Positions 6,584 to 25,101 of a stretch of 25,101 nt of DNA are shown piece after piece (positions within the stretch are counted from its first letter, which is position 1; each line of letters starts with the position of its first letter). Source of the DNA: a virus. A program made the translations under genes and the position numbers. The stretch is from IMG/VR virus record IMGVR_UViG_3300009165_000006; one strand, written 5' to 3'. The notes under the pieces are model-generated. The model had not been told where the DNA came from, did not search any database, and worked only from the letters and a program-made list of their open reading frames with translations.

Positions 6584-7378
6584 CTAGATCTCCATTTGCT
6601 CGGCCAAGTACTCGTAGTCGTCAAGCTTACCATTGGCACGCGAGGCCCTATTCGAGGCTTCGGACGCCCCGTTGGGTGCACCAAGCTTGGCGCGAGCTGT
6701 GACGCAATCCTCGTCGCGATGCCACTGACCACGGAGCTGCCACCGGGATTGCTCTCGTAGAGTCAACTTCCTCCAACCCTGTTCTCTAGCCCTCTGGTAG
6801 AGCTGCCTTGAAGCAAGGCGATTCGCCTCACTCAGAGTGAGTCCAATCGCCGCAGTCCCGAAGTCGCGTGCCAAATCCTCGACATCACACCACGGTAGGA
6901 AACGGTAGTAGCGCGTCCAGTGCCATGTCAGGATATCTGCGGCCCGTACCGGGTCAGACAATCGATGTGAGTAGCGAACAAAAGACTGCGACCATAGCAA
7001 TTCCTTGCCGGCGAACCGGTCACTCACCATGACCGTACAGGGAACTGTCTCATCAGCCGATACCTCAAGGCTAATTGGCCTCAAATCGCGAGCTTGCTCT
7101 TCTGGGAGCAGGCGAAATAGCATCCGAATCCGCCGAGTCCCGTCGAACTTACCAGTCTTGTTTGAGATCTCCAAAACCTGGCCCCATCGGCCTCGACCAG
7201 AAAAGAAATCGTCAACGACAACGACGTCAATGTCGCCCGTCGACACGCCTAGTAGCCCGGAGACTACGCCACGCATCGTACGTGACAGCCACACCACATT
7301 TTCTGTGGCCTCAAGGCTGAATTGGAAGGATGAAATCTCAACAGAACCCCGAACGATCAATTCAATTGGCTTTTTCAT
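6584..7378 (-). CDS. hypothetical protein (264 aa) with a G-x-S-x-G-D-I-D-VVVVDD acidic motif; possible nucleotide/metal-binding fold, unassigned
   Basis: Long clean ORF co-transcribed 45 nt downstream of family C copy 3 (no promoter motif between). Motif GLLGVSTGDIDVVVVDDFFSGRGRWG does not fit any family I can name with confidence. Confidence 0.6.
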   Translation of the reverse strand: MKKPIELIVRGSVEISSFQFSLEATENVVWLSRTMRGVVSGLLGVSTGDIDVVVVDDFFSGRGRWGQVLEISNKTGKFDGTRRIRMLFRLLPEEQARDLRPISLEVSADETVPCTVMVSDRFAGKELLWSQSFVRYSHRLSDPVRAADILTWHWTRYYRFLPWCDVEDLARDFGTAAIGLTLSEANRLASRQLYQRAREQGWRKLTLREQSRWQLRGQWHRDEDCVTARAKLGAPNGASEASNRASRANGKLDDYEYLAEQMEI

Positions 7379-10288: not shown

Positions 10289-10494
10289 TGATGTACCGAG
10301 TAACGTACAACGTCTTTCTATCCTCTTCTGGTGAGCGGGTTACGGGTAGCCAGGTCATTGTTGAGGTCTCGGTCGAGGGTGGGGAGGATGTCAATGACGT
10401 AGCCTATGGGGAGGCGTCCAACTTGTTGGTTGAGAAGTTTGTCGTAGGTGGTGGTGAATCTCTTGGACCGCCTGTATCTGTTGAGAGGCTATGA
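10276..10494 (+). CDS. hypothetical small protein (about 67-72 aa)
   Basis: Overlaps the upstream stop and the downstream start (ATGATG at 10491). Start uncertain (10276 or 10291). Confidence 0.4.
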   Translation: MVVVMMYRVTYNVFLSSSGERVTGSQVIVEVSVEGGEDVNDVAYGEASNLLVEKFVVGGGESLGPPVSVERL

Positions 10495-10964
10495 TGGACG
10501 AAGTGATTGAGCTACTGGAGAAACGTGGGGCTTGTGATTCATCTCTTGATTGGTTGAGCGGGTTACCTTTGGGGACGACACTTCAAGAGGCGTGGGAGCG
10601 ATGTGAGAATGGGTCATGGCTTCTTTGGTTACTTGTTCGAGTCTACCCTAAGAGTGCGGCTTACCACCAGTTCATACTCAGGGTAGCGAATCGGGCAATC
10701 GAGGTAGCCGGCGGTGACTCTGTTCTTGTCCAAGTTGTCCGGGACAAGGAAGTCTGGTGTCAAGTGGCAACACCTTTGGAGTTGGAGTCTTCGATAACGT
10801 GGTCGAAGGATGCAGCTTGGCAAGCGAGCCTTTCACTTGTGTGGGACCGTTTGGGTAAGGGGCGCTCGCCCGAGTGGTTTGCAGAGCTGAGGGCTCGGGC
10901 AGATGATCTTCGTTCTCTCTTCAGCAGGCCGGATCTGAGCTTAGTTCGCAAGGGGAAGTCGTGA
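10491..10964 (+). CDS. hypothetical protein (157 aa)
   Basis: Clean ORF in the operon. No recognisable motifs. Confidence 0.55.
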   Translation: MMDEVIELLEKRGACDSSLDWLSGLPLGTTLQEAWERCENGSWLLWLLVRVYPKSAAYHQFILRVANRAIEVAGGDSVLVQVVRDKEVWCQVATPLELESSITWSKDAAWQASLSLVWDRLGKGRSPEWFAELRARADDLRSLFSRPDLSLVRKGKS

Positions 10965-10980
10965 AGTTTGGACCTTTCTC

Positions 10981-11265
10981 ATGCCCCTTGGAGTTTGTTT
11001 GTACAAAAGAAGCGAGGTAGCCGTGAAGTTTCAAATCGTAACCTACAACCAGGCTCAAAGGCTGTGTTGTTACCCTTCAACAAGTAAGAAGCGCTACTTA
11101 GCGATGACTGTTCCGTTTGGGCTTCAGGGCGAAGAACCTTTTCGAGCTGAGGGTGATACTCGGGAGGAGGCCAAGGCGAACCTGATAGTCTTGGTTCAGC
11201 GGTTCCTTGACGATTACCCTGAGCTTGAGGTAACTGAGGTTGACCTTCAACCAAGTCACGTTTGA
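10981..11265 (+). CDS. HicB-like / UPF0150-family small protein (antitoxin-like fold)
   Basis: VPFGLQGEEPFRAEGDTREEAKANLIVLVQRFL matches the UPF0150 signature (P.lPGc...GeTlEEAlenl). Start may instead be GTG 11023. No HicA-like partner recognised nearby. Confidence 0.45.
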   Translation: MPLGVCLYKRSEVAVKFQIVTYNQAQRLCCYPSTSKKRYLAMTVPFGLQGEEPFRAEGDTREEAKANLIVLVQRFLDDYPELEVTEVDLQPSHV

Positions 11266-11386
11266 CAAGGGGGCGAGCACCGAGGGAAGGTTGGGAGTCT
11301 CAGGGGAAGTACTCGAAGGCTTCCCCTGTTAGGGGGATCAACGTCTGACTTCTTTGATGGGGAGGCCTGGAAGCGGAAGAACGTGG

Positions 11387-11590
11387 TCATACTTCGTCAT
11401 TGGAGATCAGGATATAGGGCTGACCTTCTTCGTAGCCGAAGTCTTCGCCAGTAATGTCGGCCTTGGTTGGTTCAACCTTGTCTATGATGAAGGGCGGAGC
11501 GTCTATGTGGACGAGGTAGAAGACCTCCAGGTCACCTGGGTTGGATTCTCGTATGGTTTGAAGTCTTTGGATGAGGTTATCGAGTGTCAT
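11387..11590 (-). CDS. hypothetical acidic small protein (67 aa); the alternative is the plus-strand ORF 11354..11650
   Basis: Both strands are open here. The minus-strand product looks more protein-like but it sits inside an otherwise plus-strand operon and lacks a clean promoter. Unresolved. Confidence 0.25.
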   Translation of the reverse strand: MTLDNLIQRLQTIRESNPGDLEVFYLVHIDAPPFIIDKVEPTKADITGEDFGYEEGQPYILISNDEV

Positions 11591-11927
11591 GGTGGCAAAC
11601 TACAGGGATCCAGTGCGGATGGTACGGGACATCCGGGCTCACGTCCATGAGCATGGGCATCGAGTTCAGCCGGCGGACGACCCAATGAGGCAGATGCTTG
11701 GGTACATGTGTCCGACCTGCGAGGTGTTTTGGACGTGTGGGTTACTGGCGCTTCGGGAGCTGGACGAGGCACGACTTATGGGCACACCTCTGACGGGTGT
11801 GGTTCAGAGGCGGGACGTACGGGAGCGGCTGACGGCCTACCTGAACTGGGAGCTTGACGACCCTCGGCCTACAGAGCCCTCAAAAGTTCCTGTTTTAAGT
11901 CGATACAAGCGGCCATGGGTGGTATAG
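11571..11927 (+). CDS. His/Cys-motif domain protein (family E), single-domain copy
   Basis: Paralog of 23224..23856: DPVRMVRDIRAHVHEHGHRVQPADDPMRQMLGYMCPTCE vs DPVQMIRDIRYHVRLTGHRAIPGDDPRRAMLGWICSTCE. Both end RY(K/H)RPWV(V/I). True start probably ATG 11589 (MVANYRDPV). Confidence 0.6.
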   Translation: MRLSSVMVANYRDPVRMVRDIRAHVHEHGHRVQPADDPMRQMLGYMCPTCEVFWTCGLLALRELDEARLMGTPLTGVVQRRDVRERLTAYLNWELDDPRPTEPSKVPVLSRYKRPWVV

Positions 11928-12421
11928 AATTGGCTATTACGATGGTCTATGAGTTCAAAGCCAATGGGAAAGTCATTTACGGATATCGGTTCGATCATCA
12001 ACTACTTCAAGTAGTTGATGGGATGGAGCCCGTGTGCCAGTCAAACTCTTCCCATGTAGTTGTACCGGGCGGGCTCTACTGTCCCCAGTGTGGTTCAACG
12101 GTGAAAAAGCGGGATCGGATGGTGCCTTCGCCAATCGTAGTCGAGTATGCTACTCAGTATGGGATGTCCATTGACGTGGCGCTATCTACTCTTCTCAACT
12201 GTCAGCATCAAGTACCTCAGCAGTGGTTTGATCCGAACGATAGTGAAGACTGGCTATTTGGGGTTACGGTCGTGGATGGAGGGGCGAACACTTGCACGGA
12301 GTTCTACCCGTTTTGGCATCCGGATCGAATCGAGGGCTTAGAGAAGGCGGTTCTGCTCTTCACTGACCTCGGATTGGATCCCGCAGGGGCGAAGTACTAC
12401 CTCTTAGTGAAACCGTCATGA
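11915..12421 (+). CDS. hypothetical protein (168 aa) with CPQCG zinc-ribbon-like motif
   Basis: Start overlaps the upstream stop within a CCATGGGTG context. The same context occurs at 23842-23850. Confidence 0.55.
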   Translation: MGGIELAITMVYEFKANGKVIYGYRFDHQLLQVVDGMEPVCQSNSSHVVVPGGLYCPQCGSTVKKRDRMVPSPIVVEYATQYGMSIDVALSTLLNCQHQVPQQWFDPNDSEDWLFGVTVVDGGANTCTEFYPFWHPDRIEGLEKAVLLFTDLGLDPAGAKYYLLVKPS

Positions 12422-12636
12422 CGGTGTTAAGTGCACTCATGACTAACTCGAAAGCAGTGCCGAACCAAGTCATCTATCAAGGGGTGCTGGATGATGGACA
12501 GATCATACTCACCTCTGTCCATCATCCTTCGGAGTATGTGAGTGAGGATGGGAAGGTGGTCATGACGTGTGAATCTGTCGAAGAAATCCCACTAAACAGC
12601 AGTTTCCCAGAACCCAAGACCCACTCCCAATCTTAA
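12418..12636 (+). CDS. hypothetical protein (72 aa)
   Basis: ATGA start/stop overlap with the upstream gene. Confidence 0.45.
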   Translation: MTVLSALMTNSKAVPNQVIYQGVLDDGQIILTSVHHPSEYVSEDGKVVMTCESVEEIPLNSSFPEPKTHSQS

Positions 12637-12849
12637 CACAAAGGTCTCTGTGGACATAGTTGTACAGAAATAAGAGAGGTGGTTACCCAGTGACTAATGC
12701 ACCTATTACTCCATGCTAAGTATGACTCAACACCTAAATGAGGATTCAAGTCCAAGGGTACATTCCGCCCTAAAGAAACCTAAGAAGCTTAAAGGACGTT
12801 CGAGAGTTGACAAGGATTGCAGGTTAGTCTCGAAAGGTTACTTGGTACA

Positions 12850-13095
12850 ATGTACTCTGAAGTTCTAAGGTATTTAGCAGTTGGGCTGGGTGGGTACTCC
12901 CTGGCTTTGCTGACGATTGCGGTGATCGATTGGCAGGCGAATCGCATTCGTCGACGGCGTGGCTTTTGGTCAATCTCGCCCGATGGTTCCGACGTGATGT
13001 GGCAGAAGGGCGATTTGAAGCTTCACTTTTCTATGATCTCTCGTGAAATTCAGCAAGAGCAACCAGTCCAGACGCAACGTAAAGGGATGGACTGA
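12850..13095 (+). CDS. small membrane protein (one TM helix YLAVGLGGYSLALLTIAVI followed by RRRR); holin-like topology is speculative
   Basis: ORF 12817..13095, with ATG 12850 preferred (AAAGG about 13 nt upstream). Convergent with the beta-helix gene. Confidence 0.4.
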   Translation: MYSEVLRYLAVGLGGYSLALLTIAVIDWQANRIRRRRGFWSISPDGSDVMWQKGDLKLHFSMISREIQQEQPVQTQRKGMD

Positions 13096-13207
13096 AAGGA
13101 TACTTTCAGGGCATGGCCGACCTATTACGGATCTGCATCTTCATCGGACTGTGGGTCTGCGAAGTCTATCTCTGTCGTATGCTTTATCGAGCGTGTTGAA
13201 AGAAGGT

Positions 13208-13250
13208 GGTCTTCGAGTGATCCTAGTTCGATTGGGCTCGAAGGACCTTT
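13208..13250. terminator. hairpin GGTCTTCGAG...CTCGAAGGACC followed by TTT, between convergent genes
   Basis: Inverted repeat read directly. Short T-run only. Confidence 0.35.
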
Positions 13251-13253
13251 GAC

Positions 13254-15218
13254 TCAGTAGGCATCAATCTCGACAGTGAAGTCTCCGGGGCTAACGGGTG
13301 AGTTAGATTCTAGTTGTACTGCGAGGAATGAGGCTCGTTCGAACAGTATAGAAGATTTGTAATTCTCTGCCATAGTGATCCCGTTAGTGATGCTCACACT
13401 CACTGGAGTGTGGATCCCCTGTCCGGCGATACCACTCAAGGACTTGAGTGCCGTTGCCTTAACCACAGTGGTGCCTAAATCTGTGTTCCTAACTACGATG
13501 GAGATCCCTTGCACGATGGTATCTTGCTGGAAGCGGTAGAATACCTGGGTACTGTCCAACGCGGTCTGCAGTCCTTGCCATAGGTACCTGATACCATTAG
13601 GCAGGTTACCTCGATAGCCATACACGAAAGTATTTGGTCTCGTGTATGTTGAGAAAGGCTTGCCATTGGTACTTTTCGTAACCAAGTCAACACCAGGCCC
13701 GACGTTGATGCCATTGGGCACGTTACCCGAGAGCGGTAGGAGTTGAAGGATATCCGATCCGTTGTACTTGGGCACAAACGTTAGATCATCTGTATCCACA
13801 GTACCCACGGTAGTGCAGATGAATGCGTGTCCTTCATCTGTACCACCCTCCACAGTTATGTAGGCATTGAAGGAAGTTGTTCCTGCGGGCATATCCCCAG
13901 CCCGAGTCCAGGCTCCAGTCGAATTGTAGGTCCAAGTACCATTGTTTACTGCACTTGTGGCCTGATCCAAGAATAGGCGATCTCCTTCGGCGGGCGTGTA
14001 GGAGCCTTGAGCTGCTCTAGATCCTGTAGGGGATCCCCCTGTATACCTGGCCATCACGGGCAACTTGAGATCTACCCCGCTATAGGTGTGTCTCCAGGTT
14101 AGAGGATCTGTGCCAACTGTGGCTGGGTAACTAACACAGAGCCACTTTTGGGACGCGAAGCTTCCTTCTTGCACCTCTATCCAAGATCCACTGGCATTGC
14201 TGCCAAGGGGCATATCTGCCGCACGGGTCCAAGCCTCACTAGCAACTATCCAAACAGAGTTCTGGGTTTCTGTGTTTTGACTTCCGAGGAGGATTCGGTC
14301 ACCAGCGACCAGTGTGACTCCTTGAATGGTTTGGATCCCTGATAGAGTCGTGTTCACAAGTGAGAACAGGCGTACCGAGGGGTTAGTAGTTGGTGATTGA
14401 TAGGGTACTCCAGATATGGAGGTTGTTCTTAGCTGGATTTGGCTGTTGTTATTCTCACAGCAAACCCCAGTGTAGTTACCCGCTGAGGCCAAGTCTCGTG
14501 GGGCGGCAACGTAAATGTTTGAGTCTCTCCAGGAGATCTGACACCCGGAGCCTGTCGGGGGCAAGTAGATCCCGTACTTGTGGCCATTCCCGTTGGAACG
14601 GAGATTCATTGTGCTACTTCGAGTTTGATTGAAGCTGAACGTTGCTGGCCCAAGGATACCGGTACCTGTCACGTAGAGGCCATACACGTTGGTGGTACTG
14701 CCCGTCGAGACTGTGGCGTTATCTATATTGAGAACGCAAGTTCTGATCTTCGATGTGATTGACGTCGTACCCGGGAGCTCAAGTAGTACTAGGTTAGCCG
14801 TATCTGATGTTGACGTTAAGTTCAGGGTCAGATCCTCTATACGAGAATTCTCCCCCATCGTGATCATTGTAGCGCTTACAGAGGTAGTGAGTGTGATGCT
14901 GCACACTTGCAAGCTGAATCCACGCATTGAGCAGGTGGCGGGCATTACGAACCCGGCAGCGATAGTATACCGCCCCGGTAAGAGCCACATAGTCACTTCC
15001 GTGAAGCCATACGTATTGATGTAGGCGATGGCGGCTTCAACTGTTTTGAAGGGTAATCCGTTGATCACTCCCGTTGAGTCATTCCCGTTGACGTCATCGA
15101 TGATGATGACGTCACCAAGGCTAAAGGAGTTGGGTCCCCCGGGGACGTTGAGCTTTCGGATGATAGTCCCGAAGTCATCACGAGCGAGTTCTTGTGGTGT
15201 AACTGTCATATTATCCAA
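13254..15218 (-). CDS. right-handed beta-helix protein (DUF1565/pectate-lyase-like N-terminal signature GNDSTG..PFKTVEAAI...LLPGRY); probable tailspike / tail fibre / depolymerase
   Basis: 654-aa ORF, Thr/Ser/Asn/Gly-rich. Internal tandem roughly 60-aa repeat (GDRILLGSQN...AWTRAADMPLG... / GDRLFLDQAT...AWTRAGDMPAG...). Overlaps the upstream gene by 8 nt. Confidence 0.65.
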   Translation of the reverse strand: MDNMTVTPQELARDDFGTIIRKLNVPGGPNSFSLGDVIIIDDVNGNDSTGVINGLPFKTVEAAIAYINTYGFTEVTMWLLPGRYTIAAGFVMPATCSMRGFSLQVCSITLTTSVSATMITMGENSRIEDLTLNLTSTSDTANLVLLELPGTTSITSKIRTCVLNIDNATVSTGSTTNVYGLYVTGTGILGPATFSFNQTRSSTMNLRSNGNGHKYGIYLPPTGSGCQISWRDSNIYVAAPRDLASAGNYTGVCCENNNSQIQLRTTSISGVPYQSPTTNPSVRLFSLVNTTLSGIQTIQGVTLVAGDRILLGSQNTETQNSVWIVASEAWTRAADMPLGSNASGSWIEVQEGSFASQKWLCVSYPATVGTDPLTWRHTYSGVDLKLPVMARYTGGSPTGSRAAQGSYTPAEGDRLFLDQATSAVNNGTWTYNSTGAWTRAGDMPAGTTSFNAYITVEGGTDEGHAFICTTVGTVDTDDLTFVPKYNGSDILQLLPLSGNVPNGINVGPGVDLVTKSTNGKPFSTYTRPNTFVYGYRGNLPNGIRYLWQGLQTALDSTQVFYRFQQDTIVQGISIVVRNTDLGTTVVKATALKSLSGIAGQGIHTPVSVSITNGITMAENYKSSILFERASFLAVQLESNSPVSPGDFTVEIDAY

Positions 15219-15648
15219 CCCTTACTAAGAACTCTAAAGGCAAGGCCACTGTATTGATGAAGGTGGTCTCTGTGAAGGTAGCGTTGTGGATGATGTCTAC
15301 GGCACCTATAGAGGTTAACCACGTGACTACCGAACCCGTAACAACCTTTTTGAGAGCTGCTGCGTTGGGGTAATACCCTAGGTCATGGTGTATCGTTGCT
15401 GAGTTCCCTGGGCCCGGGAAGGCCGCTAGAGAGAGGATCTCGTTGAGCCTTAGCTTACCCACCTTCTCGAACTGATAGAGATCACCTTTTTGAGCGGATC
15501 GAATGACTTCTGAAGTGTCGGGCAGGTAAACACTACGTCCCGCCCCAATGTACTGGTCCTCAGCTCTCCGGGCCTCGGATTGACCCTGCCGAATGAGTCT
15601 TAAGTCCTTCAGGTAGATCGGAGCATTGGTGAGATTCGTGACTTTCAT
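15211..15648 (-). CDS. hypothetical protein (145 aa), co-transcribed upstream partner of the beta-helix protein
   Basis: Clean ORF. GGGG 5-8 nt before the ATG. Putative promoter TTAGAC-17-GATAAC upstream. Confidence 0.55.
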   Translation of the reverse strand: MKVTNLTNAPIYLKDLRLIRQGQSEARRAEDQYIGAGRSVYLPDTSEVIRSAQKGDLYQFEKVGKLRLNEILSLAAFPGPGNSATIHHDLGYYPNAAALKKVVTGSVVTWLTSIGAVDIIHNATFTETTFINTVALPLEFLVRVG

Positions 15649-15767
15649 GAAACCCCAGATGTAATCTCATCAGAGAGTTATCTGACCTAGGGTTACCTGG
15701 TCTAAACCCTTGATATACTTATACTAATCCTAAGCCTGGTAGGTTTCCGTAGCTAGCGACATAGGTT

Positions 15768-15795
15768 TTGACTTCTAGAGGAAATCACGTAGGAT
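15768..15795 (+). promoter_or_regulatory. sigma70-like promoter TTGACT-16-TAGGAT for the Thg1-like gene (about 35-nt leader)
   Basis: Hexamers read directly. The same TTGACT...TAGGAT pair recurs at 24216-24242. Confidence 0.5.
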
Positions 15796-15830
15796 GGTTA
15801 GCTACTCGAGCACAGAAGTGACCTCAAAGT

Positions 15831-16577
15831 ATGAAAAGTGACAACCTTGATGTTCGGATGCGACGGCTTGAGTGCTATCATGCGCTGGAAGTCTTACCTG
15901 GTGCCTATCCCATTGTTCGTGTTGATGGGCGGAGCTTCACGAAGCTGACCCGAGGAATGGAGCATCCATTCGATGTGAAGTTTCACGAGTGCATGGTGGC
16001 GACGGCGAAGGCTTTGTTGATTGAGTTAGGTGGACTCTATGCATTCACGGAGAGTGACGAAATTTCGGTTCTACTGCCTCGTGATACGGATCTATTCGGT
16101 CGCGAAGTGGAGAAGCTTGTGTCGGTCTCTGCGGGGATAGCGTCGTCGACCTTTTCGTTGGAGCTGGGCAAGCCTGGTCACTTTGACGGTCGGGTCTGGG
16201 TGGGGATCTTGGAGAACGACGTGGTCGATTACTTCCGATGGAGGCAGTCGGATGCCTTTCGCTGTTGTCTGAACTCCTGGTGTTACTGGACGTTGAGAAA
16301 GGCTGGGAAGAACGCCAAGCAGGCGACGGAGGTCCTTGAAGGTCGGAGTTTCTCGGCCAAGAACGAACTACTCTTTCAGCATGGGATCAATTTCAACAAG
16401 CTCGCTACCTGGCAAAAGCATGGTGTCGGTCTCTATTGGGAGGACTTCGAGAGGACTGGGTTCAACCCCAAGACCAAGGCACCCACGACGTGCACTCGTC
16501 GGAAGGTTTTGGTGAACCGGGATCTACCACGGGGTTTGGAGTACGTTAACCTCGTGCTACGGGTAGGTGGGTTATGA
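15831..16577 (+). CDS. Thg1-like protein (tRNA-His guanylyltransferase family; 3'-5' nucleotidyltransferase)
   Basis: Hallmark blocks PIVRVDGRSFTKLT (RxDGxxF), YAFTESDEISVLL (SDE carboxylates), FDGRVW, CYWTLRKAGKNAKQATEVLEGRSFSAKNELLFQHGINFNKL. Stand-alone transcription unit. Confidence 0.75.
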   Translation: MKSDNLDVRMRRLECYHALEVLPGAYPIVRVDGRSFTKLTRGMEHPFDVKFHECMVATAKALLIELGGLYAFTESDEISVLLPRDTDLFGREVEKLVSVSAGIASSTFSLELGKPGHFDGRVWVGILENDVVDYFRWRQSDAFRCCLNSWCYWTLRKAGKNAKQATEVLEGRSFSAKNELLFQHGINFNKLATWQKHGVGLYWEDFERTGFNPKTKAPTTCTRRKVLVNRDLPRGLEYVNLVLRVGGL

Positions 16578-16849
16578 ACAGTTGGATTTCAGCTAGAACG
16601 CTCTTTCAGCCAAACAAGAACCCTCGTCCCAGTACTTCGCAACGTAGGAGACGAGAGTCCTCAAAGATTTGAACCTAGCATCCACAGTACAATAACAACG
16701 GTAGACTTCAAGGCTCCTAATGGAGCCTTAGTGACCCTGCACATAAGCGAACAAGAGTTGGAACAACTCCTCCCGTTCTTCACTGAACCACCCGTACCAA
16801 AAACAACAAAGACGATGTACCCATCAAGGTATCACCGGGTGCCAGTGAT

Positions 16850-17128
16850 CTAGATCGTCTCAAGTGCTCGATTGAGCGCAAAGCGAATCACTCGTAGATC
16901 TCGCTCCGTTAGCTTCATGGTGAATTCTTTTCCCTCGTTGCTATCCATGTTAACAACAACGTCAAGGATGTTGGGCAACTGAGGTCCAAGTAGGGCGGTT
17001 ACCTTGTCCCGTTGGATCTCTATGGCGGAACGGACTAGGTCAGCATTCGCCACCGTCGAGAACTCTGGATCATACACATCGGATATTGGTCCTGGCATGC
17101 TCAGTACCGTATCTGAGAACGTGTTCAA
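16850..17128 (-). CDS. hypothetical protein (about 82-92 aa)
   Basis: The track start is a TTG at 17128. An ATG start at 17098 (MPGPISD) is equally possible. Confidence 0.45.
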   Translation of the reverse strand: MNTFSDTVLSMPGPISDVYDPEFSTVANADLVRSAIEIQRDKVTALLGPQLPNILDVVVNMDSNEGKEFTMKLTERDLRVIRFALNRALETI

Positions 17129-17224
17129 ACTTACGTTAGAGTAGAACTCTCAGTTTGAAGCTATGCGAACCAGATTTTGTGATCTTACCTTCACAGTAAG
17201 CCTCCGGCTAGTACGGTAATAGCG

Positions 17225-17260
17225 CGAATGCAGTGCCCCTTCGGGCACTGCATCATTCGA
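17225..17260. other. GC-rich hairpin (GCAGTGCCC-CTTC-GGGCACTGC, extendable to about 14 bp) in a 480-bp non-coding gap
   Basis: Read directly. Additional perfect small hairpins at about 17322-17345 (TCGAGGAAT..ATTCCTCGA), 17355-17370 and 17448-17460. Confidence 0.6.
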
Positions 17261-17607
17261 CGATCGGGACACTTCCTAAGTAAACTTAGGCATAGCCTTC
17301 GATCCATCGATTCACCAATTTCGAGGAATATCGACATTCCTCGACCATTTTGTCCTGGAACGTCCAGGTGATCTAGGAACTACTTTCCCCGAAAGGATCA
17401 AGTCCTCTTGGTGTTTGGTCAACTTGATTTTCCTCAAGTCTTTTACCACAGCAAGGAAGTGCGCGGAACGCGCTGTTTCGTGCCGTGAACCCGATAGACT
17501 TGCTTTTCAAGGACCCATCAGATCTACCACTTTACGGAATTATGACCTGAGGCCGGTATGCTAAATCCGATTGGAATTCTTGTCAAGTTGAAAATGATCG
17601 GGTAACT

Positions 17608-17898
17608 TTGATCAGGTTTGGAGTCAACTGCTACGACCCTAACCCACCCCCAGGTCTAAAGTCCACTCCAATGCCCACGTCCACGTTCGAGAACCAAGAT
17701 GACATGATGAAGACCATCACCGAGAACGAACAAGGGAAGCCGGTCGAGGTTAATGCTTTGACCTTCGATGAGGAGTACCCGTTCGCGACCTCGCCGTTTG
17801 ACGAAGAGCCTAGGCTACCGGAGATGCCACGTGACCACACGGTGATGCATAAGACGGTCAGTGGCAACGGCGTAGTAGGACGATTGAGGAAACCATGA
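17608..17898 (+). CDS. hypothetical acidic protein (up to 96 aa; start uncertain)
   Basis: ORF only. Followed by a strong hairpin. Confidence 0.4.
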   Translation: MIRFGVNCYDPNPPPGLKSTPMPTSTFENQDDMMKTITENEQGKPVEVNALTFDEEYPFATSPFDEEPRLPEMPRDHTVMHKTVSGNGVVGRLRKP

Positions 17899-17908
17899 GT
17901 CACGAGAT

Positions 17909-17939
17909 GAAGAACGGGTCAACCACTTGACCCGTTCTT
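17909..17939. terminator. bidirectional terminator-like hairpin (AGAACGGGTCAA-CCAC-TTGACCCGTTCT, 12-13 bp stem) between convergent genes
   Basis: Read directly. Weak T-tract (TTCTTAT). Confidence 0.5.
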
Positions 17940-17944
17940 ATCGG

Positions 17945-18304
17945 TTAGCGAGCCTTCTTCCGAAGGGCTTCGAGGGCTTGCTTGGCGACGTTGAGTTCGG
18001 TTTCCACGTCACTCTCCGAATCGACGTCATGCTCACTCGCAGCGAAGCAAGCGTGCTCGATTCTGAGTGCTATCTCGCGCAACATCTCGCATGGGAGATC
18101 CAACCCCCTCCCAAGCTTCCGGATTGCTCCGATGGTAAGCCAATTCACGAACTCGGGCACCGTCCTGTAGTGGTTGGGGAGGGTACATGCAGACCCAACG
18201 AATTCGCTGGCAACCACGGCGTAGGGCTCCAAACCTACGCAACGAAATGCCTCGGCCAATGTGGTTCGAACAGCTTCGTCAATCTTCTCTGCTGGGTCGT
18301 ACAT
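17945..18304 (-). CDS. hypothetical protein (119 aa, acidic C-terminus)
   Basis: Promoter TTGAGT(18333-18338 rc)-17-TAGTAC(18310-18315 rc)-5-ATG. Confidence 0.6.
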   Translation of the reverse strand: MYDPAEKIDEAVRTTLAEAFRCVGLEPYAVVASEFVGSACTLPNHYRTVPEFVNWLTIGAIRKLGRGLDLPCEMLREIALRIEHACFAASEHDVDSESDVETELNVAKQALEALRKKAR

Positions 18305-18469
18305 GCTAAGTACTACGCACGATGGGGTGAGAACTCAACAACAAAAAAGTGGTATTGCCAGTGCAACCTGAGTATTAGTTTTTGGGTTTGGGGCCGTTTC
18401 AACCCCAGGTGGAGAAGCCTCGAAGGGGTTTGGGTGGTACTGGTTTTGCACCTTGTAGGGGGCTTGGAC

Positions 18470-18802
18470 TCAACGTTTCTTGGCCTTGGGGTGGGTGCAA
18501 GTAGGTGTGTGACCGTCGACCTCCTTAGCGCGGCAGAAGTAGCAGGTTCTGCCTTCGAAGATCCCTATCGTGGACCACTCGGGGGGAGTCCGACGGATCC
18601 TTGCGTCCTGGAAGTACTGTTCGGTTTTCCAAACAGGCGAGTTTCCGTTCCAAGAGATGAGCGCTTTACCCTCTTCAAGATTCACCTCGAGGACTTGGAT
18701 CTTCCAGACCCTCATTACAGACATGGTGGTATTTCCAGCCCTCTCCTTGTGGCAGTCGTAGAGAACATCCCCAGTCTTCAGGCTTTTGATTGCAATTGAC
18801 AT
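18470..18802 (-). CDS. hypothetical protein (110 aa) with C-terminal CYFC...H.PTCTH Cys/His cluster
   Basis: Promoter TTGAGG(18832-18837 rc)-18-TATAAT(18808-18813 rc)-5-ATG, which is a consensus -10. Confidence 0.6.
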   Translation of the reverse strand: MSIAIKSLKTGDVLYDCHKERAGNTTMSVMRVWKIQVLEVNLEEGKALISWNGNSPVWKTEQYFQDARIRRTPPEWSTIGIFEGRTCYFCRAKEVDGHTPTCTHPKAKKR

Positions 18803-18911
18803 GTTCTATTATACGTTCGAAGGTAGGGGAACCTCAACAGCTCCCTGTCGATTTCGATCTCTTCCAGGAAGCTGTTGAAATGTTGCAATAGAGTGCGAGT
18901 AGTTTAAGGTC

Positions 18912-19598
18912 TCACCGGAGAGGCTTGGCATAGTAGTGCCAAGCGTGGTTCGAGTGGTTCATGAAGTCAGCTTCCTTCACAGCATCCTCATAGGGCTTGG
19001 GATCAGATGCGATGAAGCGTGGGTTCCCCTTGTGTCCGATGGGCTCGCAGAAGACCCCGTAGAGGCCTTCTGGTCGATTCCCTACCATTAGGGTCCAATT
19101 GGGATCGGGGGTTGGTGGTTGCGGGTTCACGGCCTCGGTGATGGCTTGAATGACACGCTCATCCTCAGCTTCGCGGATGCTCTGCTTTAGGTAGCCTTTT
19201 TCAAACTCTTTGACCTTGGGTGGGTCCACGGTCTCGTTCTTGTGACGATCCTTACCAGTAAGCAAAGGATCGTTCTCGGTGATGGCTGCATAGACCTTTT
19301 CGGCCGCCACGAGAGGAGGTATGCGACCATCTTTGACCCTCATGAAGTAGGTTCGGAGTACGTCCTTGATGACCCCCCCTTGAGAGAACGGATAGGGCTC
19401 TAGTCGCTTGGCCATATCGAAGGCGTATTGGGCGAGGTACCCATTCGTGTAGGATACCTCGATGGCTATGGACTCCTGAACCAGCTCCTCAACAACCCCT
19501 GGCGTTAGGTGATCTCGCATGAGATCGTAGAGAAAACTCGTAAGCCGGCTTCGAATATTGACACTACCACTTCGTTCACGCAGGTCTTTGTTGGACAT
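18912..19598 (-). CDS. hypothetical protein (228 aa)
   Basis: Clean ORF. No family-type promoter. No motif recognised. Confidence 0.55.
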   Translation of the reverse strand: MSNKDLRERSGSVNIRSRLTSFLYDLMRDHLTPGVVEELVQESIAIEVSYTNGYLAQYAFDMAKRLEPYPFSQGGVIKDVLRTYFMRVKDGRIPPLVAAEKVYAAITENDPLLTGKDRHKNETVDPPKVKEFEKGYLKQSIREAEDERVIQAITEAVNPQPPTPDPNWTLMVGNRPEGLYGVFCEPIGHKGNPRFIASDPKPYEDAVKEADFMNHSNHAWHYYAKPLR

Positions 19599-19669
19599 CG
19601 GAGTGGTAGTTACACCGGGGAGGGACCCGAGGATTCAAAAACTCAACTCCCGGGGTATCGACTTGGCAT

Positions 19670-19922
19670 GAAAACCATACCCCATGTGATCTCTATCCTC
19701 ATCATCGTGGCTTGGCTGCTCCCTTGGACGAACGAGGCAGGCACCCAAAGGGCCTTGAAGTACAATGGGTTCACTGATGTACGGACCAAGGGGCATAGCT
19801 TTTTTACCTGTATGGACTGGTCAGCTACGGAGTTCGAAGCAACCAACCCAGCAGGGCTGCCACGGGTGACGGGTACCGTTTGTTGTGGGCTCGTCGTCAA
19901 GGCTTGTACAATCCGGTGGTAA
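19670..19922 (+). CDS. small secreted protein (signal-peptide-like N-terminus MKTIPHVISILIIVAWLLPW)
   Basis: Internal ATG of ORF 19509..19922. TTCAAA-16-TATCGA-6-ATG geometry. Confidence 0.4.
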
Positions 19923-19973
19923 CTTCGAACGGCTGTCTTTGACTTGGAGCGAGTAAGGTGCCAAAATCAACCT

Positions 19974-20231
19974 ATGCTCAAGGAATTTCTCAGATCTGCG
20001 ACCTCGATTACGATACTTCGAATCGAGGGCACAGATACTATTCAGGTTTTCTTCGAAGGAGCTGCTAGCCCCTATCCTGAGCTAGCAGCTCAACAGCCAA
20101 ACGAGTACAAGGGAGTCGTATTTTCTGTCGAGACCCGGCGAGGATATGCAGAAGAGTGGTTGAAGGTCAACCACTTTTCAGGAAAAGTTCGGTTGATAAC
20201 CAAGTCAGGCGCTTCCGAGATTCGGCTTTAG
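19974..20231 (+). CDS. hypothetical protein (86 aa)
   Basis: Internal ATG of ORF 19944..20231, directly preceded by TTGACT(19939-19944)-17-CAAAAT(19962-19967)-6-ATG. Confidence 0.45.
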   Translation: MLKEFLRSATSITILRIEGTDTIQVFFEGAASPYPELAAQQPNEYKGVVFSVETRRGYAEEWLKVNHFSGKVRLITKSGASEIRL

Positions 20232-20299
20232 ACCCGATGGTTGTTCGGGGGGCTCTGGTAAGATCATCCTCGAATGATCTACTCATACCAGGTTTTAGT

Positions 20300-20560
20300 A
20301 TGAGTAGAATCACTAATGCCCAAGACTTGTCGAGAGAGTTGCAGCGACTTCAGGATGTGTGTCAGCAGCCCAATCCTAGTCGAATGGAATTAGCTGTTAA
20401 GCTCCAGCGGTTGGCCCATCAACTTGTTGATTCAGGGCATGATATTCAGGCTACTCTCGTACATTACCCCAAACCGGTGAATTTCGAGGAGGTACTCAAG
20501 CAGCGTTGGGCACGAGAGCTTATGGAACTTCTCAATTGGTGGTTCAGTACTCACGAATAA
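20300..20560 (+). CDS. hypothetical helical protein (86 aa)
   Basis: Internal ATG of ORF 20156..20560. The start codon lies in the loop-proximal part of the hairpin TACTCATA..(11)..TATGAGTA. Confidence 0.4.
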   Translation: MSRITNAQDLSRELQRLQDVCQQPNPSRMELAVKLQRLAHQLVDSGHDIQATLVHYPKPVNFEEVLKQRWARELMELLNWWFSTHE

Positions 20561-20715
20561 GGATGAGTTTTTGGTAAACTATTGATTGGTCTTGGCAGTT
20601 GATGACTGACCCAATAGTTCGACAGGTGGTGAGCAGGTATCTGAGGGTTCGAGCAGTTGACTTCAAACTTACAAAGTTGATCAAGGCCGCTAATTATTCC
20701 GGTGTATGTAATTAG

Positions 20716-22143
20716 ATGAAGAAGAGTCGGTTCTTCATGCTGCACCCCGAGTGTAACCCAGGGAAACTAGCCTCCCTTGAAGCCCTCCATGTCGAATACG
20801 TCTCTTACGTTCGGATCTGCGTCCAGACGATGCTTGAAGCTCGTAGGCTGACTTTACCTCGTTCCAAGAAGCAAGAGTTCTTTCCACGAGCTGAGAAGCT
20901 CACATCTCAGATTGAGAAGAACGCCCGAGACCACGCTATTCAGATCGTGAGTACTTGAGCTAAATCAGTCTACGTCCGGAAGCTCAAGACCCACATTCGA
21001 TTGGCTTTCAAGAGGGGTGAAATCACCGAGGACTTCCGAAAGCAACTCTACACAGTAGAGAAGTATCTGGTTCATGAGCCAAGGGACACTGTCTCCCAAG
21101 AAGCTATCGATCTGTATTGGACTTGGCTCTCAGACCCAGAAGTAGTGGGAAATTTCCCAAGCGTGTCCAATCGGATTCCAATGAGGATGTCGGAAAACAC
21201 TTGCTCATTGGAAGATCCAGAAGAAACTGTCCACGCTGATTTTTGGCTCAAGATCTCAACCTTGGTTTCGCGTAAGCTTGCCTGGTTACCATTGGTTGGT
21301 AACCCTTATGTGAGGAAAGCTTCCGATGTTTCCAAGGGAATCCATGCGAGGAAAGACCGAAAGGGCCGTTGGCGTTTTGAAGCGGTTGATATCAAGGAGT
21401 GGCTCGTTCTGGAAGCTGAGCCAGAGTTACCTCGAGTAGGAGTCGACGTTGGGCTGAACGTAGTAGCGGCTACTTCGAGTGGACACACGTTTGGGGCTGA
21501 CCTTCAACCAAAGTTCAACCAGCTCTACAACAAGGTCAGGGCGGTTCGCTCGAACCGCCAGAGACAGAATCTTAAGGACAACTCACCCAGGCTTGACCGC
21601 CTAGAGTCCAAGCTTTCTGGGCTTACTAAGAGTATCACAGGACGAGTATCAAATGAGCTTCTTCTAGCTTATCCAGAATCGGTCTTCGTTCTTGAAGACC
21701 TTGATCTCTCTGGATGTCGAGGTCAGAAACGTTTTTGTTATCGGGCTTTAGCTCACGCTCTTGAGTCAAAAGCCCCGACGGAAGTTGTCAATCCGGCCTA
21801 TTCGTCTCAGACATGCCCGTCATGCGGGCATGTCTCCAGACTTAACAGGTCTGGAACCAGTTTCGTCTGCCGCCAGTGCGGCAGACGTTCACATGCTGAT
21901 GTGGTGGGAGGGATCAATCTGCTCAGACGTTCTGAGAGCAAACAGATTGGTCTCGATGATCATCCGTCGGAAGTGAAGGAAGTGCTTGTGAGGCTATACT
22001 GGAATCGAGGTAATCTCGGTCGGGAGTGTCCACAGGACTTCTTGAATAAGTTCGCGCCATTATCGTATGGCCGCAGGCTTACTACCAGAGCATCGCCCCG
22101 CAAGGGGCAGGCTGGCACAGCCTCTAATCAGGTAGCTGCTTGA
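20716..22143 (+). pseudogene. tnpB: TnpB / IS605-IS1341 OrfB-like RNA-guided RuvC nuclease homolog; reading frame interrupted by a single in-frame TGA (20956-20958) and carrying a roughly 70-aa C-terminal extension
   Basis: N-terminal TnpB-like start (MKKSRFFMLHPE...) and ORF 21001..22143 are in the same frame, separated only by the TGA. Downstream RuvC-I GVDVGLN, RuvC-II VFVLEDLDL, zinc ribbon CPSCGH...CRQCG and RuvC-III HADVVGGINLL are all intact. No TnpA gene nearby. Confidence 0.75.
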
Positions 22144-22166
22144 GCTTAGTAAGTTTGAGCAACTTC

Positions 22167-22198
22167 TTGAGTACGGTCTTATGCATACCTCATAATGT
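22167..22198 (+). promoter_or_regulatory. leaderless promoter TTGAGT-17-TCATAA-3-ATG for gene 22199
   Basis: Read directly. Begins only 24 nt after the tnpB stop. Confidence 0.5.
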
Positions 22199-22810
22199 AT
22201 GAAGACCATCCAACGAGTTAATAACCGATTCATCCAGGCTTCCCAAAAAGCTGACTTCGAAGCCAACCTCTTCGCAGTCCTCAAAGACAACCCAGAGGCC
22301 ATAGATGAGGGTATCCTCGAGGGCGAAAATGCCTCACAACGCTACCATAAAAACGATCCTTACGAAACAATCAAGGAATTCAAACGCTACGACCCTGAGG
22401 GCTACCAAAGGGCCTTAGAACGCTCCAAAAAAGAGCTGCTTAATAGACTTGGCAGAATCAACTTTGGCCAAAAGGGTCCAATCGTTTTCCGTGCCCTCTC
22501 ACTCCAAAACCCACAAGACTTCACCGAGAAACTACTGACATCACAAACACACGTTGGTATCTATTGGTCCTTCACTAGAGGTATGGCAAGGCCTTACTGG
22601 GCCAAAGCACCTACCCACAAAACGGTCATCCTCGAAGCCGAATTGCCCCCACGCTCTATCGACTTTCTTCAACTCATTGAGGCCAATACCACTAGAGCCT
22701 TCTCTCAAGACGAAAACGAAATTACCGCACTACCAAGTACCCCAGTCTTCATCCTCAACATCGTCTTCGAAAACCAACTCACACCAGTCAACCGTATGCA
22801 TAAAACCTAG
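22199..22810 (+). CDS. hypothetical protein (203 aa)
   Basis: Clean ORF with its own promoter. Confidence 0.6.
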   Translation: MKTIQRVNNRFIQASQKADFEANLFAVLKDNPEAIDEGILEGENASQRYHKNDPYETIKEFKRYDPEGYQRALERSKKELLNRLGRINFGQKGPIVFRALSLQNPQDFTEKLLTSQTHVGIYWSFTRGMARPYWAKAPTHKTVILEAELPPRSIDFLQLIEANTTRAFSQDENEITALPSTPVFILNIVFENQLTPVNRMHKT

Positions 22811-23223
22811 AAGACATGCAAATCTGACTCAGGGTTCTTCGGGTAAGGATTAACGGATTACACGGTCAACATGAAAAGTCATAGATATCGCGATAGAGGA
22901 AGCATTCCGACGAGCTGCTATTGAGCGACGGGGTTATACCGGGAGGAGCCTCGGATCTGGGCTACCGTTTATAGTCAAACTGAGAACCTTCGAGTGGTCT
23001 CTACGAAAGAGGAGGATGGTTTAGTGGCTCTTGAGCCCTTCTTAGAGGATTTGGGTAAGGCTCTATCTAGTTGGTTCTATGTGGACTCCATACTAGAGGC
23101 TTCTCGCTGAGGCGGGTATTTGTAGCCTGAGCATGGGGCGACAATTCGATGCTCTTGGGCCACCCGCAAGGTTTGAGGGACTTCTCCGGGACCTAGAGAC
23201 AGTACTTTGGAAAGGGTCATTGG

Positions 23224-23856
23224 GTGGCTGATTATACTGATCCAGTGCAGATGATACGGGACATTCGGTATCATGTTCGGTTGACGGGTCATCGGGCTAT
23301 ACCTGGGGATGATCCTCGTCGTGCGATGCTTGGGTGGATCTGTTCTACGTGCGAGGAATCTTGGCACATAGGGTTGGAGGGATGGCGGGAGTTGGATTTT
23401 AGGCGGCTCTACGGGCAGAACTTCGCGGATCGGTCTGCCTTTCTGGCTTACCTGAATGGTGAACTGGAGGGTCCGGACAGTTTGGGGCCTCGGGGATCTT
23501 GTCTCTTGTGCACGGATCCGATTGAGATGGTTCAGTGCATCCGGACTCATGTGCTTCGAGAAAGGCACTCGGTGGTGCCTTCTGACAACCCATTAGGGCT
23601 GACGATGGGTTACACTTGTGTTGAGTGTAATAGGGATCTTTCTCGGATTCCGCGGGTCTCTACCTGGTACACTCACTTACGATTCTTGAAGTCGTTGTCT
23701 ACCTCTGGAAAGGAGGCTGACCTTCTTCGAGGCGCACTACAAGGGCCAAGGTTACGGGAGCTGCTGACTGACTACTTGAATGATCTAACTGAGTTAGACC
23801 TTGGTGTAACTCTTCCCTTTGTAATAGATCGGTACCATCGACCATGGGTGATTTGA
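23224..23856 (+). CDS. His/Cys-motif domain protein (family E), two tandem domain copies; GTG start with AAAGGG Shine-Dalgarno
   Basis: Domain 1 DPVQMIRDIRYHV..GHRAIPGDDPRRAMLGWICSTCE. Domain 2 DPIEMVQCIRTHV..RHSVVPSDNPLGLTMGYTCVECN. C-terminus RYHRPWVI as in 11571..11927. Confidence 0.65.
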   Translation: MADYTDPVQMIRDIRYHVRLTGHRAIPGDDPRRAMLGWICSTCEESWHIGLEGWRELDFRRLYGQNFADRSAFLAYLNGELEGPDSLGPRGSCLLCTDPIEMVQCIRTHVLRERHSVVPSDNPLGLTMGYTCVECNRDLSRIPRVSTWYTHLRFLKSLSTSGKEADLLRGALQGPRLRELLTDYLNDLTELDLGVTLPFVIDRYHRPWVI

Positions 23857-24158
23857 TTCAGATCCAGGTTCGAGTTGTTGAGGATCGAGTTGTTGGGATT
23901 TTCACATCCGGGTTCAGTCTATCAACCTCCAAGCTCTATTCCAACAAGGAGGCTTTGGCCCGCCTTAGGGATGCCTCAAGCGACTGGAAGATAGTGGTTC
24001 CTAGTATCATTGCCTACTTGATAGAACAGTATCCAGATGAGGCTTGGGGTATCAATGTATTGGTGGGTCAGGTAGTGGTCCGCAGGTTTGAGTCAACTCT
24101 GACTCCCGTGGTTGTTGAGACGTCCAGGCGGAGTCGATACAACCACGGGAGTCGGTGA
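23844..24158 (+). CDS. hypothetical protein (104 aa)
   Basis: Start overlaps the upstream gene end (CCATGGGTG context). Confidence 0.45.
   Translation: MGDLIQIQVRVVEDRVVGIFTSGFSLSTSKLYSNKEALARLRDASSDWKIVVPSIIAYLIEQYPDEAWGINVLVGQVVVRRFESTLTPVVVETSRRSRYNHGSR
24104..24148. repeat. 11-bp perfect inverted repeat CCCGTGGTTGT...ACAACCACGGG (23-nt loop) at the end of the gene
   Basis: Read directly. Confidence 0.7.
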
Positions 24159-24193
24159 TCTGATTGCCCAATTCGTTGGGACAGCAGAGCGCT

Positions 24194-24217
24194 CCTTTCC
24201 TTTCCTTTCCTTTCCTT
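24194..24217. repeat. pentanucleotide microsatellite (CCTTT)4 + CCTT directly abutting a TTGACT -35 hexamer
   Basis: Read directly. TTGACT 24216-24221, TAGGAT 24237-24242. Confidence 0.85.
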
Positions 24218-24291
24218 GACTCAGTTGTACAAGTTCTAGGATGTGAACCTTAGAGATTTGGCGATTTGATCTGGTGTAGCTGCTCATCGTT

Positions 24292-25101
24292 ATGAGCAGC
24301 CTACCAACCCCCCTAGAGCTCTTGAAACAAAAGCATGCGGATCTGTTCAAAGGCCTTCAGTTCAGCTCCAAAGACAACAAGATGGCTGGGAAGGTGCTCA
24401 AGAAAGACGGAGAGGAAGCCGCCCTAGCGTTTCTGAGTGAGCGAGGGGTATCAAGGGGCGAGCTCCCAAACTTTCGACCTCCGGCTAAGACCTTGGTAGT
24501 TGCGCAGAGTCGACCTTTTGAGGAGTTTCCAATTTACCGAGTGAGTGAGGCTATTCAGCTCTATGTTTACAGCCTTTCTGTAAAGGAGTTGGAGACAGTA
24601 CCAAGCGGATCTAGTACCAAAAAAGAGCATCAACGGTTCTTTCAAGATAGTTCAGTACCTGATTTTGGATACACATCAGTCCAAGGTCTGAACAAGATCT
24701 TTGGTCTCGCCAGGGGAATCTATCTAGGAGTGATCACGAGGGGGGAGAATCAACTCCAGAAGGCCAAGAGTAAGCACGAGGCACTCAACAAAAAGCGTAG
24801 GGCTTCGGGGGAGGCAGAGACGGAGTTTGATCCAACCCCTTACGAGTACATGACTCCTGAGCGTAAGTTGGCAAAGCCCCCTGGAGTCAATCACAGCATC
24901 ATGTGTTATGTGGATATTAGTGTAGATGAATTTGACTTTAGGAACCCAGATGGCATTGTCTTACCCTCTGAGTATGCTGGATACTGTCGTGAGATCAATA
25001 CTGCGATTGAGAAGGGTACTGTCGATCGATTAGGTCACTTGAAGGGGGGCCCTGGGTATATCCCAGGGCATCAACGGAAGGAGAGCACGACAGAAGGTCC
25101 T
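24292..25101 (+). CDS. hypothetical protein, 3'-partial (at least 270 aa, runs off the window end)
   Basis: Manual translation from ATG 24292 (MSSLPTPLELLKQKHADLF...) is open to 25101. Not in the ORF track because there is no stop in the window. The start codon lies inside the hairpin GCTGCTCAT-CGTT-ATGAGCAGC. Confidence 0.5.
   Translation, partial: MSSLPTPLELLKQKHADLFKGLQFSSKDNKMAGKVLKKDGEEAALAFLSERGVSRGELPNFRPPAKTLVVAQSRPFEEFPIYRVSEAIQLYVYSLSVKELETVPSGSSTKKEHQRFFQDSSVPDFGYTSVQGLNKIFGLARGIYLGVITRGENQLQKAKSKHEALNKKRRASGEAETEFDPTPYEYMTPERKLAKPPGVNHSIMCYVDISVDEFDFRNPDGIVLPSEYAGYCREINTAIEKGTVDRLGHLKGGPGYIPGHQRKESTTEGP

Follow-up and report, generated by a model that had tools for sequence, protein, structure and literature searches.

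The stretch analysed here (the window) is the 25,101-nt DNA of the IMG/VR virus record IMGVR_UViG_3300009165_000006, and the subject is a tnpB gene at 20716-22143 on its plus strand together with the insertion sequence (IS) to which the gene belongs. The window was phage-like, with matches to virion immunoglobulin-like and head-decoration proteins and to a Thg1-like tRNA-His guanylyltransferase. By continuous translation, one frame spans 20716-22143 with the TGA at 20956-20958 as its lone internal stop, and the open reading frames (ORFs) 20716..20958 and 21001..22143 are thus in frame with each other and split by that single TGA. The segment 20648-22176 is best read, at a probability of roughly 85%, as a non-autonomous, tnpA-less and recently pseudogenised IS607-family derivative circulating in large phage genomes. 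Its proposed layout is left end (LE), tnpB and omega-RNA/right end (RE), and the respective features were as follows.

20644..20647, plus strand: AGGG in the left flank, directly 5' of the left end, a motif resembling a target or target-adjacent motif (TAM); its GG is the shared core dinucleotide
20648..20715, plus strand: LE, carrying the LE motif and fused to the tnpB start codon, with tnpA deleted
20663..20676, plus strand: subterminal repeat in the LE, complementary to RE 22145-22158 (14 nt, 93%)
20716..22143, plus strand: tnpB pseudogene of 475 codons, with RuvC triad and zinc ribbon
20956..20958, plus strand: in-frame TGA replacing the Trp81 codon (TGG to TGA, one transition)
21445-21447 (D244), 21694-21696 (E327) and 21898-21900 (D395), plus strand: RuvC residues of tnpB
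21814-21879, plus strand: zinc ribbon of tnpB (CxxC..CxxC; C367, C370, C385 and C388)
21931..22176, plus strand: template of the predicted omega-RNA scaffold over the last ~70 codons and the RE (core 22053-22176 supported by covariation; 5' limit approximate)
22063..22063, plus strand: C replaced by T in the first hairpin of the omega-RNA, within its nearly invariant ACCG loop; the same base change turns P450 into S
22144..22176, plus strand: RE after the stop codon, sequence GCTTAGTAAGTTTGAGCAACTTCTTGAGTACGG, with the terminus ...GAGTACGG (ACGG end, sharp boundary)
22177..22196, plus strand: segment TCTTATGCATACCTCATAAT, predicted to be the guide/target, shortly before the start codon (ATG, 22199) of the next gene
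17107..17636, minus strand: miniature family member composed of LE, ~320 nt and omega-RNA/RE, with neither tnpA nor tnpB

The tnpB reading frame and its in-frame TGA

The joined 475-aa product was matched by Pfam PF07282 (Cas12f1-like TNB) at 50.4 bits (cut-off 26.3) and by NCBIfam guided_TnpB (NF040570) at 82 bits (E 5e-23), the latter match covering residues 204-405 only; further NCBIfam matches, to IS607_TnpB and IS200_TnpB, were weaker than that to PF07282. In the alignments of homologs (n=29 and n=40, respectively), D244, E327, D395 and the cysteines C367, C370, C385 and C388 were invariant. A preliminary description of this DNA, made by a model from the letters and a list of ORFs, had noted a TnpB-like frame with intact RuvC motifs and a CxxC..CxxC ribbon, and the PF07282 match and the invariant residues bear this out. 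More than 430 homologs of the joined protein were obtained by searching a large protein collection, many of them being 470-488 aa long and 55-89% identical at 100% coverage, so that the matches take in the first 80 residues as well as the C-terminal tail. The same description had called the ~70 aa after RuvC-III an atypical extension; the stretch is indeed there, and the comparison of homologs showed it to be present across the whole family.

The structure of an intact homolog (P0001, 88% identical) was modelled with AlphaFold2 (mean pLDDT, the predicted local distance difference test score, 78.8) and searched with Foldseek, by which a full-length fold match to Cas12f/TnpB was obtained at a probability of 1.0, with Cas12f, ISDra2 TnpB (8H1J) and the IS607 TnpB of ISFba1 (8IAZ) as the best matches in PDB. 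Residues 408-476 of the model had a pLDDT below 50 and were predicted to be a disordered tail. A sequence search of PDB with the family profile gave CasPhi-3 (7odf, a huge-phage nuclease; E 3.7e-13) as the top match; a link to CasPhi was rejected, since this match spans only a 50-aa zinc-ribbon/RuvC-III stretch and the fold search puts Cas12f and TnpB first. Among 185,579 species-representative genomes, five close relatives only were found, all on short contigs of metagenome-assembled genomes with inconsistent taxonomy. In isolate genomes, identity was ~25-33% over long stretches, and short matches of higher identity were confined to the zinc-ribbon region. No match to the window was obtained by megablast against GenBank phages, and no relatives of the two proteins flanking tnpB were found by searching IMG/VR.

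Codon 81 encodes Trp nearly invariantly in the 29-sequence alignment and invariantly in the 40-sequence alignment, and TGG stands at this codon in both of the closest DNA relatives. The TGA was also found in contig L045 (7682 bp, from another JGI sample), which was reached through the 380-aa gene call P0122 and is 99.97% identical to window 14545-22226; its occurrence in this independent contig makes an assembly error unlikely. The changes in tnpB specific to the window lineage comprised 31 synonymous and 11 non-synonymous ones, the latter including the nonsense change and P450S, of which the same base alters the omega-RNA loop. This ratio points to purifying selection until shortly before the nonsense mutation.

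TGA terminates 9 of the 20 longest ORFs in the window, tnpB included, and the tnpB homologs also end in TGA. As TGA is a normal terminator there, no sign of genome-wide recoding was seen, in agreement with the earlier view that recoding is unlikely, and translation with TGA as a sense codon yielded only overlapping spurious ORFs. No tRNA, and hence no suppressor tRNA, was found in the window by tRNA search. A recurrent programmed TGA was considered for the truncated homologs and rejected, since it is frameshifts or deletions that interrupt those copies, unrelated lesions without a recurrent TGA pattern. There is no evidence of programmed recoding at this TGA. We conclude that tnpB was inactivated recently by a real nonsense mutation; of the options offered by the preliminary description, those of a recent nonsense mutation (pseudogene) and of a decaying TnpB are supported by the TGG-to-TGA change at Trp81 and by its presence in L045.

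Element ends and the omega-RNA scaffold

A 207-aa protein with a MerR-type helix-turn-helix (HTH) and a resolvase domain is encoded immediately upstream of the closest intact homologs (contigs of 120-443 kb); on sequence grounds, it is an IS607-type serine transposase, TnpA (sister copies L001, L002 and L007). Nothing was found in the window by tblastn with the family TnpA, which agrees with the absence of TnpA noted before, and the element was therefore filed as a non-autonomous derivative and not as an autonomous IS. The comparison of homologs for TnpA, which had been proposed as a check, showed that intact relatives carry TnpA and standard IS607 ends, so that the window copy is an ordinary decayed IS copy; the preliminary description had named just this outcome as one that would refute it. 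A conserved 62-aa ORF precedes tnpA and overlaps its start in all full copies. Some full copies (L007/L015, record IMGVR_UViG_3300021077_000115) have two passenger ORFs of 111 aa and 138-144 aa, without Pfam match, between tnpA and tnpB (5256-6004 in L007).

Pairwise comparison of three TnpA-bearing insertions in unrelated contexts delimited a shared unit, whose start lies ~90 nt before the 62-aa ORF and whose end lies 34-35 nt past the tnpB stop. In IMG/VR viral contigs (up to 618 kb), 31 family loci were found in varied contexts, with 2-3 copies in several genomes; many are without tnpA and some are fragments. The DNA similarity of the window element to other copies spans from the tnpB ATG to 22177, and the sister solo copy L020 (89% nucleotide identity), broken by a 1-nt deletion, has the same 22 nt before the ATG. 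The LE motif AGGG/TTCGAGCAGTTGACTTCAAACTTACAAAGTT (the slash marks the junction) aligns with the left ends of the TnpA-bearing copies, the window has exactly two occurrences of the pattern RGGGTNNNAGCAGTTGAC, and RGGG/T precedes 16 of 16 recognisable family left ends. On the right, the 33 nt of the RE are base-for-base the same in copies at five insertion contexts with unrelated downstream flanks, and a (T/A)ACGG terminus lies 10-35 nt past the stop in 27 loci. The preliminary description had seen no room for a right end after the stop codon; this was wrong, since a short RE behind the stop is the normal layout of the family. Nor did the promoter that it placed 24 nt after the stop hold up: TTGAGT at 22167 is part of the conserved RE, the motif, called family-type, is unique in the window, and promoter-like sites were found there twice against 2.0 expected.

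The junctions of the tnpB element read AGGG/T at the LE and ACGG/T at the RE, with a GG core at both and without terminal inverted repeats. The subterminal matches of the LE and RE (TCAAACTTACAAAG / CTTAGTAAGTTTGA, respectively) are candidate binding sites of TnpA, as suggested by their sequence and position; AAGTT/AACTT motifs also recur in both ends. IS607 elements have been shown to use a GG core strictly; the omega-RNA scaffold of one of them ends in UCGG and its TAM is TGGG (PMC10690162), GAGGG or AGGAG being the TAMs of other IS607 TnpB proteins (PMC11061315), and IS607 has neither terminal inverted repeats nor target duplication (PMC6188088). The window ends match these experimentally shown features (GG core, NCGG scaffold end and, as predicted from the left flanks, a G-rich TAM), the predicted TAM of the family being RGGG.

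For the guide RNA, the 180 nt leading up to the RE end were aligned for 27 loci and the structure was predicted with RNAalifold. The structure had 31 pairs, 24 of them with compensatory changes; 90.9% of the cells were paired, versus 26-51% when the partners were slid by 1-3 columns, and the double-change cells numbered 170, versus 21-52 in the slid controls. None of 500 shuffles matched the observed pairing values. In the window, a covariance model built from the 27 sequences had exactly two hits, one of 106.8 bits on the plus strand (22036-22176) and one of 85.4 bits on the minus strand (17251-17107). The model had been trained on both sites; in loci outside the training set, it matched only at tnpB 3' ends or at the mini-element copy. 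The covariance-model and fold searches suggested earlier for this region thus yielded a structured omega-RNA. In Rfam, no family matched in the window at the gathering threshold, nor in 20400-22400 at E up to 10; a RAGATH-18-derived right-end-element RNA (reRNA) was rejected as having no match, as was an IStron, the group I intron core not being found in the element.

The coding pattern of the gene changes towards its 3' end. Among five close copies, the variable sites at the first, second and third codon positions were 27%, 13% and 71%, respectively, in codons 1-405, and 21%, 26% and 30%, respectively, in codons 406-475. This loss of codon periodicity after codon 405 indicates that the tail is constrained as nucleic acid and not as protein, which agrees with the predicted disorder of residues 408-476. 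The C-terminal extension is, as read from these sequence comparisons, the ORF running through the omega-RNA scaffold; the covariation, the lost periodicity and the predicted disorder together support the earlier proposal of an overlap between a guide RNA and the 3' coding extension. Judged by the alignments and by the lineage-specific changes, 22063 is another conserved position that has been hit. Since in IS607 TnpB systems the scaffold extends as far as the RE and the flank supplies the guide (PMC10690162), 22177-22196 would by analogy be the guide. The right flank was different in every family insertion compared.

Related insertions, local history and competing explanations

The protein of the downstream gene (22199-22810) led to contig L046 (120 kb), which encodes a homolog of it at 95% identity and bears a full IS copy elsewhere; synteny between L046 and window 10331-25101 was seen at 91-99.8% identity. 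L046 was used as the reference for both insertions. The mini-element has its LE motif at 17640-17623 and, on the minus strand, begins AGGG/TCGTAGCAGTTGAC and ends ...CTCAGATACGG/TACTGAGC. L046 is empty at this position, reading GGGTTAGGG/TACTGAGCATGCC, and comparison of the empty AGGG/TACTGAGC with the filled site showed a precise insertion after AGGG without target duplication. This clean empty site confirms independently the boundaries and the target of the family. Window 17103-17640 was 98.7% identical to a segment lying elsewhere and inverted in L046, whose copy of the mini-element is at 16893-17429. A small minus-strand gene starts with the ATG at 17098, and the insertion lies 8 nt upstream of this codon.

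At the tnpB element, homology to L046 restarts precisely with 22177, the base that immediately follows ACGG, and window 20260-22176 stands in place of 1.36 kb with three small genes. Of the boundaries of this cassette, only the right one (22177) falls on a transposon end. The difference in the left flank may be due to flank co-conversion during homing or to ordinary phage mosaicism. Exact-pattern scans of metagenome contigs with the predicted empty-site junction and with the right flank gave 0 matches each and were uninformative.

Some neighbouring features were also recorded. Left of the element is an 86-aa gene (ATG 20300 to 20560), where L046 (8616-9978) has unrelated genes of 105, 142 and 135 aa. 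The Thg1-like guanylyltransferase is at 15831-16577 (PHROG 4717, E 1.6e-35), and its homologs in L045 and L046 match Pfam Thg1/Thg1C. A ~950-bp segment (17944-18899), containing two small minus-strand JGI gene calls (119 and 110 aa) and a 290-aa plus-strand ORF without PHROG match, is absent from L046, where 7248-7255 is contiguous; it is possibly another mobile cassette.

In intact relatives, the serine-recombinase TnpA would move the element by recombination at the GG core, which would explain AGGG/T on the left, ACGG/T on the right and the absent target duplication. TnpB guided by the omega-RNA would cut element-free sites (RGGG and a match to the guide), after which recombination would copy the element back in; the scaffold would be encoded by the last ~70 codons and 33 nt, and the guide would be read from the right flank. 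In the window copy, tnpA is missing, tnpB has recently been knocked out at Trp81 and the omega-RNA is changed in a nearly invariant loop, which makes it an inert or decaying passenger.

Several points weigh against the reading as a decayed IS607-family derivative. The left junction of the tnpB element is faced by unrelated DNA in L046 and so has no empty site for comparison; the local history is a cassette replacement and not a simple or clean insertion, given the exchange of 20260-22176 for unrelated DNA; the survey for TnpA and TnpB was limited to the window, beyond which copies acting in trans could lie; and the guided_TnpB score of 82 is below the curated cut-off of 100, a shortfall which, on sequence grounds, marks the TnpB here as a divergent clade.

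The explanation with the next strongest claim, in our judgement an unlikely one, is that the gene is alive at a low level, the UGA acting as an attenuator that is read by near-cognate tRNA-Trp or a phage suppressor tRNA. UGA is leaky through tRNA-Trp, and as it replaces Trp81, such read-through would restore wild-type TnpB; that the TGA sits exactly at a Trp codon, that the remainder of the ORF is unbroken, keeps every catalytic residue and has an excess of synonymous changes, and that two assemblies have the allele would all fit. The synonymous/non-synonymous ratio, however, mainly reflects the history before the mutation, the same codon ends tnpB itself and nearly half of the longest ORFs, the window has no tRNA, other family copies were broken in other ways, and the omega-RNA loop has taken a second hit. 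The corollary, that the phage population keeps an attenuated live TnpB which could serve the mini-element 3.5 kb away, is equally doubtful; if true, a single phage genome would harbour guide-only parasites alongside a throttled homing nuclease. Less probable still is a sequencing or assembly error in an intact gene, which the single-base difference from TGG would allow, as not only L045 speaks against it but also the gene calls truncated to 320 and 380 aa that are recorded for three contigs (102, 99 and 7.7 kb).

We give just as little weight to a functional product truncated at the N-terminus and starting at TTG 21001 (380 aa) or ATG 21181 (320 aa). Gene callers annotated these ORFs (P0122, 380 aa, and P0027, 320 aa and 100% identical), and they keep the half with RuvC and the zinc ribbon; but the 95-155 residues lost include strand 4-9 and the long helices 15-41 and 64-99, which are conserved and confidently modelled, neither start is preceded by a Shine-Dalgarno-like sequence, and homologs of such length are all broken copies. 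The N-terminal regions of TnpB/Cas12f bind the RNA-DNA duplex and the TAM. Domestication, whether as a TldR-like guide-RNA regulator of the downstream gene or by co-option of the RE as its promoter, is likewise highly improbable. The predicted guide abuts the start codon at 22199, and TTGAGT in the RE forms a sigma-70-like pair with CATAAT in the flank; the promoter-like match is at chance level, however, and an intact triad in a broken ORF is the opposite of a nuclease-dead repressor. TldR membership was rejected, as the RuvC site is not inactivated and the association with the target gene is not fixed: L046 has only 40 nt between the neighbouring genes and no element there. The domesticated TnpB of the preliminary description is thus not supported, the family being mobile and multi-copy in varied contexts and the catalytic residues being intact.

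With the decayed IS607-family derivative as the preferred reading, the two annotated ORFs are to be merged as one IS607-family tnpB pseudogene with defined ends, and the conserved C-terminal tail is to be read as an omega-RNA template and not as a protein domain. The window copy itself is broken and unremarkable. The family is a clade of ~475-aa TnpB that is accompanied by an IS607-type TnpA and was met here on hardly any contigs other than those of phages; it has a covariation-supported omega-RNA absent from Rfam, a predicted RGGG TAM and gene-less mini-derivatives. Compact RNA-guided nucleases might be drawn from it, and it may exemplify the spread of homing-type elements among large phages.

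Comparison with known systems

The family was compared with CboIS607, the Clostridium botulinum IStron (PMC10690162), and with IS607 itself (PMC6188088). As in both, full copies have a MerR-HTH serine-recombinase TnpA upstream of tnpB and a GG core at both junctions, with neither terminal inverted repeats nor target duplication. As in CboIS607, the scaffold ends in NCGG at the right end and the TAM would be the same tetramer with G for C (AGGG and ACGG for TAM and scaffold end here, TGGG and TCGG in CboIS607, respectively), and non-autonomous derivatives exist as in the IS607 family. Unlike CboIS607, the element has no group I intron detected by Rfam and its TnpB is longer (~475 aa); unlike both, nearly all members of the clade were found on metagenomic contigs of phages or of phage-like character, and unlike a full IS607, the window copy has a nonsense codon and is without tnpA.

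ISFba1-type TnpB (PMC11061315; PDB 8IAZ) is likewise the RuvC nuclease of an IS607 element and is RNA-guided, as predicted for the family here; the Foldseek match to 8IAZ had an E of 9.5e-12 at a sequence identity of ~17%, and the G-rich TAMs AGGAG/GAGGG there resemble the left flanks (G/A)AGGG here. The reRNA of ISFba1 is RAGATH-18-derived, whereas the guide RNA here is not RAGATH-18, its scaffold is predicted largely inside the ORF instead of in a downstream non-coding region, and the protein is ~90 aa longer. ISDra2 TnpB (IS200/IS605; 8H1J, 8EXA) and Cas12f share the modelled fold and catalytic architecture, and ISDra2 TnpB also has an omega-RNA overlapping the tnpB 3' end and a poorly ordered C-terminal tail; it differs in the Y1 HUH TnpA of IS605, in place of a serine recombinase, and in a T-rich TAM, in place of the G-rich one predicted here, and Cas12f uses CRISPR arrays. 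The element at 17107-17636, which keeps LE, RE and the omega-RNA scaffold but no genes, is like the palindrome-associated transposable element (PATE)/mini-IS type, from which it differs in lying in a phage genome and in deriving from an IS607-type instead of an IS200/IS605-type element.

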